In this document: piece by piece, positions 45,314 through 54,002 of the stretch
Position numbering within the stretch: the first letter of the stretch is position 1
Layout: every line of letters starts with the position of its first letter
Source: Candidatus Bathyarchaeota archaeon
GTDB taxonomy: Archaea; Thermoproteota; Bathyarchaeia; 40CM-2-53-6
NCBI GenBank assembly: GCA_963706285.1
Contig: CAVPLU010000012.1
Location: 1-64,000 of the forward strand
Length of the DNA stretch: 64,000 nucleotides
Direction of reading: 5' to 3'
Made by a program: the position numbers and the translations under genes
The notes under the pieces: generated by a model
Told to the model about the DNA's origin: nothing
Database searches by the model: none
The model's input: only the letters and a program-made list of their open reading frames with translations

Positions 45314-46328
45314 CTATTCGCGTCTGAAAGAGCGAATGAGGTTTGAGGCAGCAGTGTAGGGATCAATCGCTCGGTTTGCAACCTGCTTTTCATATTCCGT
45401 AAAAGCCTGACTTCTTCGCAGATCGGGAATGAATTCGAGTTCTAGTTCCTGTTCAATAGCAGCCAGAAGTTGAGCCTCGCCGTCCATGAGCCCGCCCCTA
45501 GTGAGATGATATTTGGCAACGTATGCTTGATGCTCACGGATAGCGGCAACTCAACTCGAGAATTCCGCTAGGTTTGAGAGAATCTGTGAGAATCACTTGA
45601 GGCTGCCATGTTCGTTCAGAGCCGTAGGTTTGAAGCATGCCTCTGATGTCGAGAAGCGTTCTGTTTGCGCCTGGCAGGTCCGCCTTGTTTACAACGATTA
45701 TGTCTCCAATCTCCATGAGACCAGCCTTGAATGCTTGTATCTCATCTCCCCATCCAGGAGACAAAACAACCACAACAGTCTGGGCTAGTTTCATTATTTC
45801 CAAGTCTGTCTGACCTGCACCAGCAGTCTCTACTACGATATGATCCCAAGAAGCAGCGTCAAGTATGCTCACAACGTCTGCAGCTGCACGGCAAAGTCCA
45901 CCCACAGCGCCACGCGTTGCCATGCTTCTAATGAACACTCTGGGGTCTTCCGTTAGATCTCTCATCCTTATTCTGTCGCCCAATAGTGCCCCACCTGAGA
46001 AAGTGCTGCTTGGGTCGATGGCAACAACAGCGATTTTCTTCCCCTCGGCACTAACTCGTCTGGCCAAAGCTGCGATGAGGCTGCTCTTTCCGGAGCCTGG
46101 GGGTCCAGTGACTCCGACGACGGACGCCCGGCCAGTCTGTTGGAATAGTTTCCCAATCACGTGTTTTGCCGCGCTTCGATCGTTCTCAACTCTCGATATC
46201 AAACGCGAAAGTGACCTGCGGTTGCCGTGTGTTGTTTCTGCTATGAGTTCGTCCAGATCTTGTTCCCTTGACGAGTCCACTGTGGTCACGATACCTAGAG
46301 AGTTTATCCCATCCTCTGATCGAGACAC
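45314..46328 (-). CDS. meaB: MeaB/ArgK acyl-CoA mutase-associated GTPase, +1 frameshift near 45551
   Basis: GVTGPPGSGKS, AIDPSS.FSGGALLGDRIRM, FIRSMATRG, ET.G.GQ, KAGLMEIGD, NKAD; alternate frame ends IDPYTAA..TAG 45314. Confidence 0.93.
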
Positions 46329-46331
46329 TGT

Positions 46332-47918
46332 CTAGAACGATACTTTTGGTTTGTACTCCCCGAAGGCTTCCATCAGAACGCCACTAATTTCCCCGTTTGT
46401 TGCTCCTGATTTCACGGCATTCAGTATGCTTGGCATCAGATTCGCGGGAGTGGCAGCATTGGATTTCAAAACCTGCAGCGTGTCTTCGACTCTGTGCGTG
46501 TTTCTTGAGCTCTTGTACTTTCGAAGTCTCTCGAGTTGTCTAGCCTCTGCTTCCGGATCGACTCGATGGATCTTGAACCTTAGATCTTCCATTTCAGTGA
46601 ACTTGTTTACGCCTACAACGGTCTTGTCGCCGCCATCTTGACGCAGTTTTGCGTCATACGCGCTGTGCCTGATTTCGTCTTGCATGTACCCGGATTCGAT
46701 CGCTGCTAGGGCACCCCCCATGGCATCGATCTTCTTGAACTCCTGATTCACTCTCTTTTCAATCTCATCGGTCAAGTATTCGACGTAGTATGATCCCCCA
46801 AGAGGATCGACCGTTCTTATGACTCCCGACTCATGTGCCAAGATCTGTTGAGTTCTCAGTGCCACCTTCACGGCCTCTTCTGTAGGCAGGCATAGAGCCT
46901 CGTCGTATGAGTTGGTGTGAAGCGACTGCGTCCCCCCAAGCACCGCGGCAAGAGACTGCAGCGTGACTCTTACGATGTTATTGTGAGGTTGCCTCGCGGT
47001 CAGGCTCTCTCCGCTCGTCTGAGTGTGGAATCTCAACATCCATGATTCTTTTGCCTGAGCATTGAACATCTCTTTCATGATTTTGGCCCAGATGCGTCTG
47101 GCAGCCCGAAACTTCGCAACCTCCTCAAAAAGATCGTTCTGACATGCGAAGAAAAATGATAGACGAGGTGCGAAAGAATCCACGGTCATGCCTCTTTCTA
47201 GGCATGTCTTCACGTACTCGATGGCATTTGCGAATGTGAACGCGAGTTCTTGGATAGCATTTGCTCCGGCTTCGCGGATATGGTACCCGCTGATACTAAT
47301 CGGGTACCATTTCGGAACTTGTTTCGCACAGTAGTCTATGAGATCTGCACAAAGTCTGAGAGAGGCTTTTGGAGGGTAGATGTACGTGTTCCTCGCAACG
47401 TATTCCTTCAGAATGTCGTTCTGAGTGGTTCCCCTCAGAAGCTCAGGCAAAACACCCCTCTCCTGGGCGACTGCCACATACATTGCCAAGAGTGTCGTCG
47501 CTGTCGAGTTAATCGTCATCGAGGTACTTACTTTGTCAAGGGGAATGTCTTCGAGTAGGGTGCGCATGTCATCAATTGTGCTGATCGGAACTCCGACCTT
47601 GCCTACTTCCCCCTGCGCTCGGGTGCTGTCGGCGTCAAGCCCAAGCTGGGTAGGGAGATCGAATGCGACACTCAATCCTGTCTGTCCATGCTGTAGCAGG
47701 TACCTGAATCGCTCATTGGTCTCCTCAGCGCTGCCGAAACCACTGTACTGCCTCATGGTCCAGACTCTTTCCCTATACATAGTGGAGTAGATTCCGCGAG
47801 TGAAGGGATACATTCCCGGCTTGAAATCGGGGCCACCTTCCGAAGGAGGCGGAGTTCCCGAGTAGATTACATCGACCGGGATTCCGGAGTCTGTACGCAT
47901 CTCTTTTGCTAGACCCAT
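46332..47918 (-). CDS. Methylmalonyl-CoA mutase large subunit (MCM-type)
   Basis: WTMRQYSGFG (Tyr determinant), DLPTQ.G, QNDILKEY.AR (Arg determinant), SISGYH, HTQTSG, DPLGGSY. Confidence 0.93.
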   Translation of the reverse strand: MGLAKEMRTDSGIPVDVIYSGTPPPSEGGPDFKPGMYPFTRGIYSTMYRERVWTMRQYSGFGSAEETNERFRYLLQHGQTGLSVAFDLPTQLGLDADSTRAQGEVGKVGVPISTIDDMRTLLEDIPLDKVSTSMTINSTATTLLAMYVAVAQERGVLPELLRGTTQNDILKEYVARNTYIYPPKASLRLCADLIDYCAKQVPKWYPISISGYHIREAGANAIQELAFTFANAIEYVKTCLERGMTVDSFAPRLSFFFACQNDLFEEVAKFRAARRIWAKIMKEMFNAQAKESWMLRFHTQTSGESLTARQPHNNIVRVTLQSLAAVLGGTQSLHTNSYDEALCLPTEEAVKVALRTQQILAHESGVIRTVDPLGGSYYVEYLTDEIEKRVNQEFKKIDAMGGALAAIESGYMQDEIRHSAYDAKLRQDGGDKTVVGVNKFTEMEDLRFKIHRVDPEAEARQLERLRKYKSSRNTHRVEDTLQVLKSNAATPANLMPSILNAVKSGATNGEISGVLMEAFGEYKPKVSF

Positions 47919-48100
47919 CCTTCTCCAGCACACTGCCTTGACATGCGATGTCGAGGAGACAGCTAGAAAAAGCGCTTATAGCTTATGCGCTAGACTTGGA
48001 ACTTGGAGGCAAATGCACCGCAATGTCTCCGACCGAGAAAATGAACTTCTGGAAAACCACTCTGAAGCAGCTGAAAGCGAAACGAAAGGCAAGGTCTCCA

Positions 48101-49784
48101 ATGCTCTTGAATTCTCAAAGGAGAAAACTGACAGCTGAGGAGCGACGATGGGAGAAGAAGATACTGAGTCCTTGGCTCTCGGATAATCCGGAATCCAAGA
48201 GTGGATTCAGGAATGCTTCTGGCATCGCCCTGAATCGAATCTACACTCCGAAGGAGACTGCCTCTGACGATTACACGAAAGACGTTGGGTTCCCGGGCAA
48301 TTTTCCGTACACTCGAGGAATCTACCCAACAATGTACCGTGGACGAACATGGACTATGCGCCTCTTTTCAGGATTCGGCACGCCCGAAGACACCAACAAG
48401 AGACTACGCTACCTTCTTGACCACGGCGAAACAGGACTGAGCATAGCCTTCGACATGCCCACTCTCTACGGGTATGATGCGGATCATCCACGTGCGCTAG
48501 GAGAAGTGGGAAAATGCGGCGTATCAGTCTCATCGCTCGAGGACATGGAGCACCTCTTTGCCGATATCCCTCTAGGAAAGGTGAGTACCTCGATGACGAT
48601 CAATGCCCCCGCAGCGATCCTCACTTGTATGTACATTGCGGTCGCACAGAAACAAGGGGTTGCACCCTCTCAGATCAAGGGTACAGTTCAGACGGACATT
48701 CTCAAGGAGTACATAGCTCAGAAGGAGTGGAACTACCCCCCTGAGGCGCACCTTCGCATAATCCGAGACATGATCGCATACTCCACAAGAAATTTGCCGC
48801 ATTGGAATTACGTCAGCGTCAGTGGATATCATATCCGTGAAGCTGGATCAAGCGCCCTCCAAGAGCTCGCCTTCACTCTTGCCGACGGATTTGAGTACAT
48901 CAAACTCGGCGTAGAAGCCGGTCTCAAAGTGGACGACTTCGCTCCACGGCTCTCCTTCTTCTTCAATTGTGGAATGGATCTTTTTGAGGAGGTTGCGAAG
49001 TTTCGGGCTGCCAGACGCATCTGGGCTCACGTGATGAAGAACCGATTTCGGGCAAGAGATCCACGGTCTATGCTCCTAAGATTCCATACACAGACTTCTG
49101 GAGCTTCGCTAACGTGGCAGCAACCGTTGAACAACATCGTAAGGACAGCGATTGAGGCTCTTGCCGCGGTGCTTGGGGGGACGCAGTCGCTTCACACCAA
49201 CTCATACGACGAAGCCTGGGCGCTGCCTACCGAGGAAGCCGCAACAATTGCACTTGAGAACTCAACAGATAATAGCAGAAGAGACGGGCGTCGCGGACGT
49301 GATTGATCCGCTTGGCGGATCATACTATGTTGAATACTTAACCGATGAGATGGAGAGGCAATCGTACGAGTACTTCGACAGGATTGAGTCTCTAGGCGGG
49401 GTCCTTCCAGCAATCAAAGACGGGTTCTTCCAGAAGGAAATCGCTGACACCGCATACAAGTACCAGAAAGAGATCGAGCGTCGCGAGCGGGTGGTCGTGG
49501 GAGTGAACAAATACGCGATGAAGGAACAGTCTCCTTTGAACACATTGAAAGTCGACATTGCCGGTCAAGAGAGACAGATTCGCAGACTGAAAGAGTTGAA
49601 GGTTCGCCGCGACAACTCGAGAGTCAAGACAGCATTGGACAACTTGCGCCATACGCTGGAGAATGATAAAGCGAATTGCATCGTACCCATCCTCAACGCC
49701 GTGCAGGAATACGCAACATTGGGCGAGATTACTGAGGTCGGTCGTCAAGTTTTCGGCGATTGGAAGGAGCCAGGCATACTGTAG
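48101..49784 (+). CDS. Acyl-CoA mutase large subunit, isobutyryl-CoA mutase-like; +1 frameshift near 49255
   Basis: [10 protein letters not shown] (Phe), [20 protein letters not shown] (Gln); start uncertain (47948-48101). Confidence 0.88.
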
Positions 49785-49873
49785 AATCTACATTCTCGAC
49801 GTTAATGTTATCAGAGCCGTATGAGAGATACAGGTCAAGGGGAAGCATTACGCAGGCCGTGACAGTGAAATCG

Positions 49874-50315
49874 ATGGAGCCTAAGGCAGGCGCAGGCATC
49901 AGGATCTTGGTCGCTAAACCCGGGCTTGAGCGAATCTGAACAGCTAGACGGGCACGACCGAGGAGCACTGGTTCTCTGCAGAGCATTCAGAGACGCCGGT
50001 ATGGAAGTGATCTACGCCGGACTATTGGCGACACCTGAGCAGGTGGCACAGATGGCAGTAGACGAAGACGTCGACGTGGTCGCGATGAGCCTGCTGAACG
50101 GTGCACATCTCACGGCCTTTCCCAAGGTCGCCAACTTGCTACGACAGAAGGGTGCGAGTGACATTGTCCTCGTTGGCGGGGGGATAATCCCCGAAGAGGA
50201 TAAGCCACTATTGGAGAAAGAGAGGATAACGGGCAATTTCGGCCCTGGAACTCCTCTCAGCGAGATCATCAACCACATAGTTGAAAGAGTGAAAAAGGAA
50301 AGACGCCGTGGTTAA
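49874..50315 (+). CDS. Acyl-CoA mutase B12-binding small subunit, two exons (49874-49928 + 49948-50315; 140 aa)
   Basis: Spliced product MEPKAGAGIRILVAKPGLDGHDRGA..RDAGMEVIY.G..S.L.GAH..GGGIIP..FGPGT. Confidence 0.92.
49929..49947 (+). other. 19-nt bulge-helix-bulge archaeal intron candidate in a protein-coding gene
   Basis: CCCG-GGCT-[TGA]-G-loop-C-AGCT-[AGA]-CGGG; cutting after nucleotide 2 of each bulge restores frame and the DGH motif. Confidence 0.85.
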
Positions 50316-50782
50316 ACGAGCGGTGCCTCTGCGTTTTCGGCGTACGACTGCCTTGCAGAACTTCACCTTCAGAGCATGCGTACCTGACGCCTTTCGAATA
50401 GGATTTTGGCGTATTGTTTTAGCCCATTCATGGCTTCCAAGGGCCACACTAACTGACAGCCCTGACTTCGGGCACATTAAGATGTGTACCCAAGAGCACA
50501 CAAATATCTGGGAAGCAAACCACTGATGGATTCAGACCAGGGAACAGTCCACCGAAATTGAGATGTGGTCACCTCGGCCACATCAAATACCCCCAGGATC
50601 TACAGGCACGGGGTCATCTACTCTCTTCCGCGCTTCCACTTCACGCTAATTTGGAGACCACACATGGAACGCACAGCGCCGATGTTAGAGATTCCTCGAA
50701 AAATCCATTACAACCTCAAACGGGTGAAGGAACAAAGCGCTTTATCATAAGCAACCCACCTCTTCTCTTCGAGGCGAAAACT

Positions 50783-52063
50783 ATGAGAAAGGTCGCAGTT
50801 GTTGCTGGTGGAATTTCCAGATATCAAAAACCGAGGCATGAAAACCAGGAGGAAATGGTTGCCGAGGCGATGAAAGAGGCGCTGGAGGACACTCCCAATC
50901 TCTCGATTCGAGATATAGACAATCATGTGTGTTCCTACTTTAGCGATCACTTTGAGCAGCAACTCGCGTTCTCATGGATACCTAATGATTACCTTGGACT
51001 TACGCCGAAGCCCGTCTTCAGAGTTGAAAATGGCGGAGCTGGACCTGGAACAGCAATCAGGACTGCTTGGGCGCTTGTTGCATCAGGCCTGTCAGATATC
51101 TGCTTAGTAAGTGGTTTCGAGAAGCAAGGTGAAGTTTCGTCAGCAAAGGCAAACGAGTTCATCGCTTTGGCAAGCGATACTGACTTCGACTTCCCAGTTG
51201 GCGGCTACTATACTGGCTACTATGCCGCGATGGAGGCACGTCACATGTACCTCTATGGCGAGACTGAGGAAGATCTTGCCATGATCGCCGTCAAGAACCG
51301 GAACTACAGCTTGGATAACCCATACGCACAGTGGCCGATTGAATGTGGAGGAAAGCGAATTACCGTTAGCGATGTCTTGTCGTCTCGTCTGATCGCATGG
51401 CCTCTCAAAGTACTTGACTGCTGCCTACTGAGCGAAGGAGCCAGCGTCATTGTATTGGCCTCACCGAAGTACGCCAAGAAGATCACGGATACGCCGATCT
51501 GGATAACGGGAGTCGGGCTTGGAAGCGACATGATGAGACCGGGGGATCGACCTGACAATCCAGGTTTCCATGGCATGTTCCCGAGCGAAGCCCGAGCGTA
51601 CCCGAAACACGCGCTAAAACCACGAGAACCATACCCTGAGATGACAAACTTCGGAGCTTGCAAGGTTGCAGCGCGGACCGCGTACAAGATGGCGGGAATC
51701 AAGAAGCCAGTCAAGGAGATCGATATTGTAGAGATACATGACGCGTATGATTCGAGCGAGCTCCAAACATACGAGGATCTTGACTTCTGCAAGAGAGGCG
51801 AAGGCAAGAATCTCATTCGAGAAGGGCAGACCTACGTCGACGGTGACATTCCAGTCAATGTGAGTGGAGGCCTCGAAGGTTTTGGTCATCCTGTGGGATC
51901 GACAGCAATTGGCCAAACAGTGGAGCTATTCTGGCAGCTTAGACAGGAAATTGGTAGGAAGCATAAGAGTGATGCAACTCAAGTCAAAGGAGCCAAAGTG
52001 GGGCTCAATCACAGCCACGCAGGGACCGGAACCGCGATCGCAGTCATGATCATGGAAAGGTGA
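50783..52063 (+). CDS. Thiolase-like protein (SCP-x type) lacking the nucleophilic Cys
   Basis: ENGGAG in place of E.ACAS; SEGAS, EIHDAY, N.SGG...GHPVG. Confidence 0.88.
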   Translation: MRKVAVVAGGISRYQKPRHENQEEMVAEAMKEALEDTPNLSIRDIDNHVCSYFSDHFEQQLAFSWIPNDYLGLTPKPVFRVENGGAGPGTAIRTAWALVASGLSDICLVSGFEKQGEVSSAKANEFIALASDTDFDFPVGGYYTGYYAAMEARHMYLYGETEEDLAMIAVKNRNYSLDNPYAQWPIECGGKRITVSDVLSSRLIAWPLKVLDCCLLSEGASVIVLASPKYAKKITDTPIWITGVGLGSDMMRPGDRPDNPGFHGMFPSEARAYPKHALKPREPYPEMTNFGACKVAARTAYKMAGIKKPVKEIDIVEIHDAYDSSELQTYEDLDFCKRGEGKNLIREGQTYVDGDIPVNVSGGLEGFGHPVGSTAIGQTVELFWQLRQEIGRKHKSDATQVKGAKVGLNHSHAGTGTAIAVMIMER

Positions 52064-52737
52064 ACCAAATGGAGCCTGACAAAGTCATCAAAGAGAAGAA
52101 GCCAGACTCAAAATGGTCAGAATGGGGTAGACTCGGAAAGTGGAATGTTGTAGGCTACAAGATCATCGAGGGGAACAAGGGCCCTAGACCAGACAAACTC
52201 CAAAGAGCTCGCTACATGCTCGTCAACCGTCCATGGGACGTGATGTATGAGCATAGCTATGGACTGGTCTCGAAATTCTTTGAAGGGCTCATGGAAAAGA
52301 AATTGATGGGAACCAAATGCCCGAAATGCGGAGACGTGTTCTGCCCACCGAGAGCGCACTGCTGGAGAAACAGCTGCAAGCTGGCGGAAACGGAGTGGGT
52401 AGAGATGCCAATGCATGGCATTCTCCACTGTTTCACAGTACTTGGTTTCGCAGGTGAGGCGTTTCTGTCAGATCTCCCATTCATACTCGCATACGTGAGA
52501 GTGGATGGAGCAAATACGATGATTGCAGGCAGATTTGTTGGGATGGATCCTGAAGACGTTGAATGTGACATGAAGGTAAACGTGAATTTTGTCGAGCATC
52601 CAACTGGAACTCCAATGGACATCTACTTTACTCCAGAAGGCCCACCGCTCGGCAGGCGCTCAGCGGAAGCAAAGGAACGGATGCGGAAGCAGCTTGAGCC
52701 AATTCGAGCATACGTGAAGGCGAAGTTCGGAAAATAG
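52060..52737 (+). CDS. DUF35 Zn-ribbon/OB-fold protein
   Basis: FFEGL..KLMGTKCPKCG...PPR.HC; follows the thiolase-like gene. Confidence 0.88.
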   Translation: MNQMEPDKVIKEKKPDSKWSEWGRLGKWNVVGYKIIEGNKGPRPDKLQRARYMLVNRPWDVMYEHSYGLVSKFFEGLMEKKLMGTKCPKCGDVFCPPRAHCWRNSCKLAETEWVEMPMHGILHCFTVLGFAGEAFLSDLPFILAYVRVDGANTMIAGRFVGMDPEDVECDMKVNVNFVEHPTGTPMDIYFTPEGPPLGRRSAEAKERMRKQLEPIRAYVKAKFGK

Positions 52738-52829
52738 CAACAACCTACACCTCAAGCGATGAGTTATTAGGCAATATGCTGTGACAGCTTGGGCCTGTTC
52801 AACGATCAGTTGTCTTGTCAGTGGTAAGC

Positions 52830-54002
52830 ATGGTAAGACCTCTCGCAAGTATTGTTTCCGTTGGCATCTCAAAATTCGGGATTAGAAAGGGACTGTACGC
52901 CCGTGAGCTTTTCCTGGAAGCCGCTCAAGAGGCCTTCGAGAGATGTCCGAATCTATCTCCTAGAAAGCATGTTGACGGCTTGTTTGTCGGTCAGATGAGT
53001 GAGTCATACGAGCATCAGGCGCACGTTGCACCTATGATCGCGGACTGGCTCGGTATTCTACCAGTGCCCGCATATCGCACCGAAGCTGCCTGTGCATCTT
53101 CCGGAGCAGCGATGAGATGTGCGATATTCGCGATAAAATCCGGCATGCACGACATAGTTCTAGTTGGGGGAGTCGAGAAGATGACGAACCAACCCACGGC
53201 AAGAGCGACTGAGTATTTGGGTATGGCTTCGGACTTTCCGTTTGAACAATGGCATGGGATAACATTTCCCGGCATATTTGGCATGATGGCTACGGCACAT
53301 ATGACAGAATACGGAACCACGGAAGAACAACTCGCCAAAGTCGCCGTGAAAAATCATGAGAACGGAGTATTGAACCCGAAAGCACACTTGCAGAAGAAGA
53401 TATCCGTCAGTGACGTGCTCGCGTCGCGGCCGGTCGCGTGGCCTCTGAAGCTCTACGACTGTTCAATGATATCAGACGGCGCAAGCTGCCTTATCCTCAC
53501 AAAACCCCAACTAGCCAAGAAATTCACCGATGACCCCGTCCACATTATCGGATCAGGGCAGGCCCAAGACACTCTCGGCCTCTTCGAGAGGAAGGATCCC
53601 GCGACGATGAACGCGACGAAACTGGCCGCAAGAGACGCTTACAAGATGGCAAACTTGGGTGTGAAGGATATTGACGTGGCTGAGGTCCACGACTGCTTCA
53701 CAATTGCTGAGATCATGGCGTACGAGGCCTTGGGTTTCTGCAAGCAAGGCGGAGGCGGGAAGCTGATCGACGACGGAGTCACGAATATTGGTGGTAAGAT
53801 CCCGGTCAACACGAGCGGGGGATTGAAATCCAAGGGTCATCCGGTTGGCGCCACGGGAACAGCTCAGGCCGCTGAGATCTATCTGCAGCTTGCTGGACAA
53901 GCAGGAAAACGGCAAGTAAAAGGAGCAAAGGTCGGCCTCACCCAAAATATCGGAGGCTCGGCCTCAACTGCTGTGGTCCAAATTTACCGTCGAGGGAACT
54001 AA
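52830..54002 (+). CDS. Acetyl-CoA C-acyltransferase (thiolase)
   Basis: EAACASSG, GGVEKM, SDGA, EVHDCF, N.SGGLKSKGHPVGATG, QNIGG. Confidence 0.94.
   Translation: MVRPLASIVSVGISKFGIRKGLYARELFLEAAQEAFERCPNLSPRKHVDGLFVGQMSESYEHQAHVAPMIADWLGILPVPAYRTEAACASSGAAMRCAIFAIKSGMHDIVLVGGVEKMTNQPTARATEYLGMASDFPFEQWHGITFPGIFGMMATAHMTEYGTTEEQLAKVAVKNHENGVLNPKAHLQKKISVSDVLASRPVAWPLKLYDCSMISDGASCLILTKPQLAKKFTDDPVHIIGSGQAQDTLGLFERKDPATMNATKLAARDAYKMANLGVKDIDVAEVHDCFTIAEIMAYEALGFCKQGGGGKLIDDGVTNIGGKIPVNTSGGLKSKGHPVGATGTAQAAEIYLQLAGQAGKRQVKGAKVGLTQNIGGSASTAVVQIYRRGN

Follow-up and report, generated by a model that had tools for sequence, protein, structure and literature searches.

The window analysed here is a stretch of 64,000 nucleotides (nt) of a Candidatus Bathyarchaeota archaeon (assembly GCA_963706285.1, contig CAVPLU010000012.1, positions 1 to 64,000). 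In its gene for the B12-binding small subunit of an acyl-CoA mutase, the reading frame is interrupted by 19 nt, a candidate bulge-helix-bulge (BHB) pre-mRNA intron. The source is a metagenome-assembled genome (MAG; G000) of 2.13 Mb in 21 contigs, with 89% completeness and 7.5% contamination. The gene starts with ATG at 49874 and reads 18 codons up to ...VAKPGL (CTT at 49925-49927), followed by GAG CGA ATC TGA. The TGA at 49937-49939 is the stop of this frame, and translation of the unspliced mRNA would end after 21 residues. A second frame reads DGHDRGALV... from 49947 to the stop at 50313-50315. When 49929-49947 are removed, G is joined to AC, and 55 + 368 = 423 nt form a frame of 140 codons. 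The features of the gene and its insert are as follows (MFE, minimum free energy structure).

49874..49928, plus strand: exon 1 of the B12-binding small subunit of acyl-CoA mutase, comprising ATG, 18 codons and G, the first letter of the Asp codon
49919..49922, plus strand: 5' strand (CCCG) of the outer, exon-exon helix, pairing with 49949-49952
49923..49926, plus strand: 5' strand (GGCT, exonic) of the central 4-bp helix, pairing with 49942-49945, with one G-U pair
49927..49929, plus strand: 5' bulge of 3 nt, predicted cut after 49928
49929..49947, plus strand: candidate BHB intron of 19 nt, with boundaries set by the rule of a cut after the second nt of each 3-nt bulge
49930..49941, plus strand: inner part of the intron, with a closing G-C pair (49930/49941) and a 10-nt loop; weak inner helix, relaxed BHB
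49937..49939, plus strand: in-frame TGA within the intron, from the reading of the open reading frames
49942..49945, plus strand: 3' strand (AGCT, intronic) of the central helix, pairing with 49923-49926
49946..49948, plus strand: 3' bulge of 3 nt, predicted cut after 49947; present in the MFE of every sequence folded
49948..50315, plus strand: exon 2 with the B12-binding domain, from AC of the Asp codon and GHDRGA... to the stop; PF02310, TIGR00640
49949..49952, plus strand: 3' strand (CGGG) of the outer helix, from the Asp and Gly codons

In a BHB motif, the archaeal splicing endonuclease cuts both bulges behind their second base. A first-pass annotation, made from the letters of the window alone, had described both frames, the helices, the bulges, the closing pair and the 10-nt loop, and all of these match the window to the base. 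Its application of the cut rule, giving PGLDGH and a 423-nt open reading frame, holds in the window and in relatives. Exon 2 alone scored 74.8 bits with PF02310 and 138.4 bits with TIGR00640 (cut-off 57.45), and its nearest solved chains were 2yxb_A and 4r3u_C, the latter being the small subunit of 2-hydroxyisobutyryl-CoA mutase. The insert splits the Asp codon of D-G-H-D-R-G, which we take to be the cobalamin-binding motif named DxHxxG, and this motif is whole only once the mRNA is spliced. No Rfam family matched in the window or at the insert site, and ARAGORN found no tRNA in the window.

Orthologues were sought by protein similarity, a search unbiased by the DNA pattern, in the family of the window (59 genomes in the collection searched). 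The insert was found at exactly the same site in all eight genomes of the window's genus with a match and in 13 of 15 genomes of a second genus, which makes 21 insert-bearing MAGs from two Bathyarchaeia genera, with insert lengths of 15-23 nt. It was absent from the 22 other readable orthologues of the family (17, 2, and 1 in three further genera and two of the second genus) and from four loci of the same order. None of the 68 homologues from outside this family, chiefly Nitrososphaeria, has it either. The comparison of orthologues that had been proposed with the first description thus found an insert common to two genera and lacking in other family members and outgroups. The exon-1 peptide ending in ...LVAKPGL was kept in all orthologues, with or without the intron, and 89 of 90 intronless homologues read ...G(L/I)DGHDRG. 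One intronless copy of the third genus (L022; genome G011, contig C103), located at a contig end, has AAC (Asn) in place of the motif Asp.

A pattern scan of metagenome contigs matched at least 120 stretches; of the 120 listed, 82 were the mutase gene with the insert and 38 were unrelated. DNA similar to the genome was found in wetland, peat, and soil metagenomes. A strict junction expression retrieved 101 loci with 73 distinct junction sequences, the metagenome part being taken from the matches listed. The inserts in these 73 junctions were 15 nt (2), 16 nt (4), 17 nt (30), 18 nt (11), 19 nt (25), and 23 nt (1) long and covered all three residues modulo 3.

In the gene tree (49 rows; L022 was left out as too short, and the protein itself is short), the window's genus formed one all-intron clade and the second genus another, in which two intronless genomes were nested as a sister pair. 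On the maximum-likelihood tree, the presence of the intron needs three changes, and a single origin is not contradicted by well-supported branches. In loci L012 (G016) and L044 (G059), the intron is precisely missing, and the helix-forming exon codons have already changed. As read from these sequences, both loci represent precise intron loss with the exon codons drifting afterwards.

The predicted structure was conserved across the copies. The central 4-bp helix and the bulge spacing were intact in all 73 distinct junctions (among the matches listed), and all four outer pairs were formed in 72 of them, with a single outer pair lost in the remaining one. Among the metagenome matches listed, both helices were fully paired in all 82 on-target matches and in none of the 38 off-target matches of the same DNA pattern. 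Pairs were counted in two alignments, one of 30 sequences with a 17-nt insert and one of 25 sequences with a 19-nt insert. The outer helix was paired in 99-100% and the central helix in 100% of the alignment cells. Overall, 96.7% and 92.8% of the cells were paired in the two alignments, respectively, compared with at most 40.0% when the partners were slid. In the central helix, the strand contributed by the intron was AGCC in 35, GGCC in 23, GGCT in 8, and AGCT in 7 of the 73 junctions. It varied only at the first and last bases (R-G-C-Y), and each variant still pairs with the fixed exon strand.

For the helices that flank the core in the strict hBHBh' form, the outer one was 4-5 bp in all copies, while the inner one was more variable. 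The inner helix averaged 2.23 bp, compared with 0.55 bp for shuffled inner sequences (maximum of 1000 shuffles, 0.90). It ranged from 1 to 5 bp overall. Most copies of the window's genus have 1-2 bp, making theirs a relaxed motif, and 3 bp is the usual length in the second genus (range 2-5). The MFE of the second genus was the textbook helix-bulge-helix-bulge-helix with an exact 3-nt 5' bulge in three of the five sequences folded.

When the cut rule was applied, every one of the 73 junctions gave ...PGL-D-GHDRG in frame. The codon that follows the insert in the contiguous DNA was AAC in 53, GAC in 18, TAC in 1, and CAC in 1 of the junctions, and the Asp codon arises only by joining G to AC in 55 of them. 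Exon codons around the junction differed between family genomes with the intron and those without it: CCC for Pro (19 of 21 vs. 0 of 22), GGG for the first Gly (21 of 21 vs. 4 of 22), GAC for Asp (21 of 21 vs. 9 of 22), and GGG for the second Gly (20 of 21 vs. 2 of 22). The outer helix was possible in only one of the 22 intronless family members and in nine of the 68 outside homologues. By this comparison, the synonymous exon codons of intron-bearing genes appear fixed to those that the helices need.

A stop codon in the frame of exon 1 was present in 72 of the 73 distinct introns, compared with 23.6% of shuffled introns; in the other two frames, stops occurred in 9 and 4 of the 73 introns. 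TAA, TAG, and TGA interchange at the same intron positions, and the sole stopless intron reads TGG. The stop may reflect selection for quick termination on unspliced mRNA, or it may be a side effect of a U-R-R preference. With an in-frame stop in all introns but one and no contiguous Asp codon at 55 of the 73 junctions, splicing would be obligatory, which agrees with what the first-pass annotation had concluded from the window copy.

The gene appears to be in use. Exon 2 was open over 121-127 codons in all 21 intron-bearing genomes, and its ratio of nonsynonymous to synonymous substitution rates (dN/dS) had a median of 0.049 and a maximum of 0.124 (45 of 210 pairs, 0.05 < dS < 3). These values point to strong purifying selection on exon 2 and to a functional gene. 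The first-pass annotation had called this the only B12 subunit of the cluster, and a phmmer search found no other mutase-type B12 small subunit in the 89%-complete genome. Seven other B12-binding domains scored above the Pfam cut-off in the genome, and by length and phmmer they are of other kinds. Both mutase large subunits of the genome sit in the cluster of the window, together with a chaperone gene.

45534..46328, minus strand: MeaB-type G-protein chaperone of the mutase (TIGR00750, 278.1 bits, above cut-off)
46332..47933, minus strand: mutase large subunit 1, intact, 533 aa, divergent (PF01642, 726 bits; TIGR00641, 744 bits)
47948..49784, plus strand: mutase large subunit 2, directly upstream of the small subunit (PF01642 profile positions 3-349 and 345-512 in two frames; 1-nt indel near 49254)

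On the 3' side of the small subunit, positions 50558-54002 hold a thiolase-like gene, a gene of the DUF35/ChsH2 type with an OB-fold and a zinc ribbon, and a second thiolase. Judged by their predicted families, these genes fit a cluster for acyl-CoA conversion.

The cbf5 gene of the window's genome served as an internal control. It carries a 20-nt insert between ...AGHGGTL and DPIVTG... (contig C13, approximately 129529-129563, minus strand, outside the window) with the same bulge geometry, a 5-bp inner helix, and one C.A mismatch in the central helix. The rule places the cut inside the catalytic Asp codon (GTLDP), where it separates G, the first letter, from AT. Of 30 loci from relatives in the order, 28 have 17-23 nt inserted at this position; the other two were not resolved by the motif search. 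The published spliced cbf5 intron of crenarchaea has the same position, and its splicing was shown in four species (PMC2738675; this and the other papers cited are quoted from excerpts of their text). The cut rule reproduces the published cbf5 junction in the window's own genome. As this insert indicates, the lineage evidently depends on mRNA splicing for the essential enzyme Cbf5. A cbf5 intron reported for Bathyarchaeia was not found in the literature searches.

Two genes of the EndA family were identified in the genome, scoring 87.9 and 44.8 bits, and both encode the N-terminal as well as the C-terminal domain. They lie near 149 kb of contig C12 and near 75 kb of contig C6. One of the proteins (186 aa) aligned end to end with 2cv8_A, 3p1z_B, and 2zyz_B, which are catalytic subunits of two-subunit enzymes. 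The alignment spans the Crenarchaea-specific loop, with K39 and K41 opposite K44 and R46 of 3p1z_B (counted on the printed alignment). The second protein (174 aa) showed no clear match to the catalytic stretch. 3P1Z is EndA of A. pernix, for which K44 and R46 are named, and the Crenarchaea-specific loop with its Lys is described as giving EndA a broad specificity that includes relaxed motifs (PMC3241643, excerpts). These alignments point to a two-subunit EndA of the crenarchaeal type in this genome, one that has the broad-specificity loop. RtcB is also present; its profile matches in two frames that overlap (326 and 261 bits), over positions 1-243 and 236-426.

The tRNA genes of the genome seem to be almost all interrupted. 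The Rfam tRNA model gave 16 matches in the 89%-complete genome, and all 13 full-length ones span 88-129 nt and therefore carry inserts; many tRNA genes were probably missed. ARAGORN called 26 tRNAs when introns were allowed and three when they were not, and its intron models look unreliable. As a separate observation, the calls for tRNA-Met and tRNA-Phe were identical in length and score on contig C4 (222230-222340 and 230573-230678) and contig C20 (1503-1613 and 9022-9127), which suggests that the two contigs are duplicated or redundant, in line with the 7.5% contamination.

We conclude, with a probability of roughly 0.86, that the 19 nt are a genuine and obligatorily spliced BHB pre-mRNA intron, and that both its host gene and its lineage are new for introns of this kind. 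In the transcript, CCCG and CGGG of the exons would pair as the outer helix, and GGCT of the exon and AGCT of the intron would form the central 4-bp helix, which leaves two 3-nt bulges on opposite strands. The two-subunit crenarchaeal-type EndA would cut after the second base of each bulge, and RtcB would join the exons, creating the G|AC codon for the Asp of DxHxxG and the 140-codon frame. Translation of unspliced mRNA would stop inside the intron, so that the two large subunits of the cluster would obtain a functional partner from spliced mRNA only.

Several observations weigh against this conclusion. The fold of the window copy was no more stable than chance, with z = +0.34 for 53 nt (120 of 200 shuffles folding equally well) and z = -0.25 for 38 nt (76 of 200 shuffles equally good). 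Its MFE pairs 49928 with 49941, which reduces the 5' bulge from 3 nt to 1 nt, and its inner helix has only 1 bp. For these reasons, the window copy is classed, on its predicted fold, as a relaxed BHB. The covariation check proposed in the first-pass annotation found only slight covariation: in the 17-nt and 19-nt alignments, only one pair showed double changes (two cells), which was no better than shuffles, and pairing was instead conserved with compatible changes. The 73 junction sequences come from two clades, so their counts are not independent. In this analysis the cut rule was calibrated through cbf5 only, and we infer cleavage and ligation from the anatomy of the junctions. The frame of rtcB is broken by a 1-nt shift within ...AMA/AACNFAW... 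(C4, approximately 106303-106325, minus strand), with no intron at this place; the shift is presumably a consensus indel. The structural support consists of conservation and compatible changes because the exonic strands are not free to vary. It is the comparison among copies, and not the folding energy of the window copy, by which the predicted BHB fold beats chance.

A genome-wide scan for BHB motifs at apparent frameshifts, also proposed at the outset, revealed no further mRNA intron, although the scans were of low power and further introns are possible. A strict scan combining the BHB motif with repair of the open reading frame (8 of 11 geometries) gave 319 candidates in the real sequence and 306-335 in decoys, and its filter U0 ≤ 20 excluded the mutase gene itself. 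Paralogue alignments across the junction left two real candidates compared with 1-4 decoys, and both real matches also passed decoys of the same length. When the scan was relaxed to the bulge signature NGN/ANA, there were 116 real candidates vs. 96-129 decoys, or 36 vs. 18-32 with a filter for the lack of a start codon. When the 116 candidates were ranked by the coding score on both flanks, cbf5 and the mutase gene ranked second and third. The top-ranked candidate, a polyprenyl synthase with a natural C-terminus, was rejected as a false positive.

A broader reading would join the two introns. Bathyarchaeia might hold a small set of BHB micro-introns at hairpin-forming Leu-CUN G|AY sites that split codons of catalytic or cofactor-binding Asp residues. 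The introns of cbf5 and the mutase gene would then stem from one process (such as transposition or reverse splicing from tRNA or cbf5), and the EndA/RtcB step and the stop codon would act as a checkpoint tying the mutase to the capacity for tRNA splicing. We regard this as rather unlikely; if it were true, more mRNA introns would await discovery in intron-rich archaea.

The intron may also be real and spliced conditionally, as a switch through which the state of the tRNA-splicing machinery, or the growth conditions, would set how much B12 mutase is made. The first-pass annotation had suggested that splicing could gate both mutases, and such a regulatory role is possible as speculation. Only one mutase-type small subunit was found for two large subunits, and the in-frame stop is near-universal, with TAA, TAG, and TGA replacing one another at the same positions. 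The motif of the window's genus is weaker than that of the second genus, which could make cleavage rate-limiting. However, the stop may be a by-product of U-R-R, as three of the four R-R combinations are stops, and the TGG exception fits this explanation. For the cbf5 intron, no function is known (PMC7714728, excerpts). The precise loss in two genomes indicates that the mutase intron is dispensable. Conditional splicing is considered improbable.

Translational recoding, in which the ribosome hops or shifts over the insert as in phage T4 gene 60 and no RNA is spliced, would give the same protein from the window copy. There, a Leu codon (CTA) followed by GAC stands at the insert end in the exon-2 frame and would permit a Leu-to-Leu hop. 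Such a hop is possible in only three of the 73 distinct junctions, the window included, and 55 have no GAC before which the ribosome could land. The insert lengths fall in all residue classes modulo 3, which also argues against a frameshift signal; no stop directly follows the take-off codon, and what is conserved is the BHB geometry rather than codon matching. Recoding is very unlikely on these grounds. Production of the subunit as a two-piece protein was considered and rejected; in most copies no start codon precedes the motif in exon 2, where the first Met comes only behind the His ligand.

That the insert disables a decaying and unused pseudogene would account for the in-frame stop and the frameshift, and other broken genes occur in the genome. 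This is hardly credible for an insert retained at one site in 21 genomes and at least 82 contigs as 73 distinct variants, in a gene whose exon 1 is conserved in frame and whose exon 2 is open throughout with the low dN/dS given above. In addition, no second mutase-type small subunit was found, while two large subunits and MeaB are retained.

An assembly or consensus artefact of the long-contig MAG deserves next to no weight, since the insert recurs in 20 other MAGs and at least 82 metagenome contigs and is kept, but for one base, in contigs from other studies. The suspicion arises from single-base differences in the window. The base at 49254 is one extra base that contigs of runs X2 and X9 do not have, and further differences from other samples were seen at 49788, 50601, and 50638; all four are likely consensus indels of the long-contig assembly, and the 1-nt shift in rtcB adds to them. 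Independent assemblies cross the insert in run X1 (contig of 1043 nt, covering 49352-50200) and run X9 (172 nt, covering 49797-49966), with one base changed and no indel. The first-pass contrast between the insert and the 1-2 nt indels elsewhere is thereby supported: the base at 49254 is missing from two other runs, while the 19-nt insert is retained. Among the sequencing runs listed with DNA of this kind, none is registered as an RNA sample. Run X20 is labelled metatranscriptomic but is probably DNA; its single contig of 157 nt matches the window from 49943 on, with approximately 92% identity, spans no joint, and is uninformative.

An obligatorily spliced intron in the mutase gene would have consequences for annotation and for the study of the enzyme. 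Gene callers will truncate or split the mutase small subunit and cbf5 in these MAGs, and pathway reconstructions of Bathyarchaeia may wrongly call the B12-dependent acyl-CoA mutase absent or broken. The more than 70 natural junction variants would define the tolerance of the splicing enzyme. The gene would also provide a clear case of an RNA fold dictating synonymous exon codons, together with evidence of precise intron loss.

The first-pass annotation had asked whether an intron was already described in this gene family. Literature searches turned up none in the mutase small-subunit family; they did not cover supplements, and absence from print is probable and not certain. One paper contained both 'methylmalonyl-CoA mutase' and 'bulge-helix-bulge', with unrelated mentions in the excerpts available. 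As far as those excerpts go, the searches turned up only two archaeal mRNA BHB cases, cbf5 (coding) and HVO_1309 (5' untranslated region, UTR). Since 2002, cbf5 has been the only known case of an endonuclease-spliced intron in an archaeal coding sequence, to which one 5'-UTR case was added (PMC7714728, excerpts). The mutase intron would be the second coding-sequence host, a metabolic one, in a new, uncultured, and environmentally abundant lineage.

The BHB of HVO_1309 in Haloferax volcanii (Schwarz 2020) likewise lies in an mRNA and is cut by the tRNA-splicing endonuclease (PMC7714728; PMC10485636; excerpts). There, the intron lies in the 5' UTR and the enzyme is homodimeric, whereas the mutase intron lies within a codon and the predicted enzyme is of the two-subunit type. 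A further comparison is with non-canonical BHB introns of archaeal pre-tRNAs, which have the same motif, fall in the same size range (11-175 nt, PMC2738675, excerpts), and are presumed to be processed by the same enzymes. They differ in that the mutase host is an mRNA, with both splice sites coding and the choice of exon codons constrained by the fold.

In the splicing of XBP1/HAC1 mRNA by IRE1 and RtcB, a short intron is removed and the reading frame of the mRNA is changed. It resembles the proposed mutase splicing in using an endonuclease and a ligase independently of the spliceosome (PMC13149111, excerpts). That system relies on another endonuclease and another RNA motif, and its reaction is a stress-regulated switch. 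In the bypassing of phage T4 gene 60, the ribosome skips a short non-coding gap in an essential open reading frame between matched take-off and landing codons. The short gap in the reading frame is common to both, whereas the matched codons of gene 60 are permitted in only three of the 73 mutase junctions.

A close parallel is the cbf5 pre-mRNA intron of Crenarchaeota (Desulfurococcales and Sulfolobales), reportedly described by Watanabe 2002, Yoshinari 2006, and Yokobori 2009. The cbf5 intron is 33, 36, or 39 bp long in some species, whereas the mutase introns are 15-23 nt long (cbf5 lengths from excerpts of PMC2738675). Its host is an RNA-modifying enzyme, whereas the host here is a metabolic enzyme subunit of mesophilic wetland and soil Bathyarchaeia, and its splicing was shown experimentally, whereas that of the mutase gene is predicted from sequence. 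Both are short BHB introns in a coding sequence, often with a relaxed motif and linked to hetero-oligomeric EndA (PMC2738675, excerpts). Both stand between letters 1 and 2 of the codon for a catalytic or cofactor-binding Asp, with obligatory splicing and with gain and loss among relatives, as far as the same excerpts describe cbf5. The mutase insert is not a member of the cbf5 intron family, as its host is a mutase subunit, and it would work alike.

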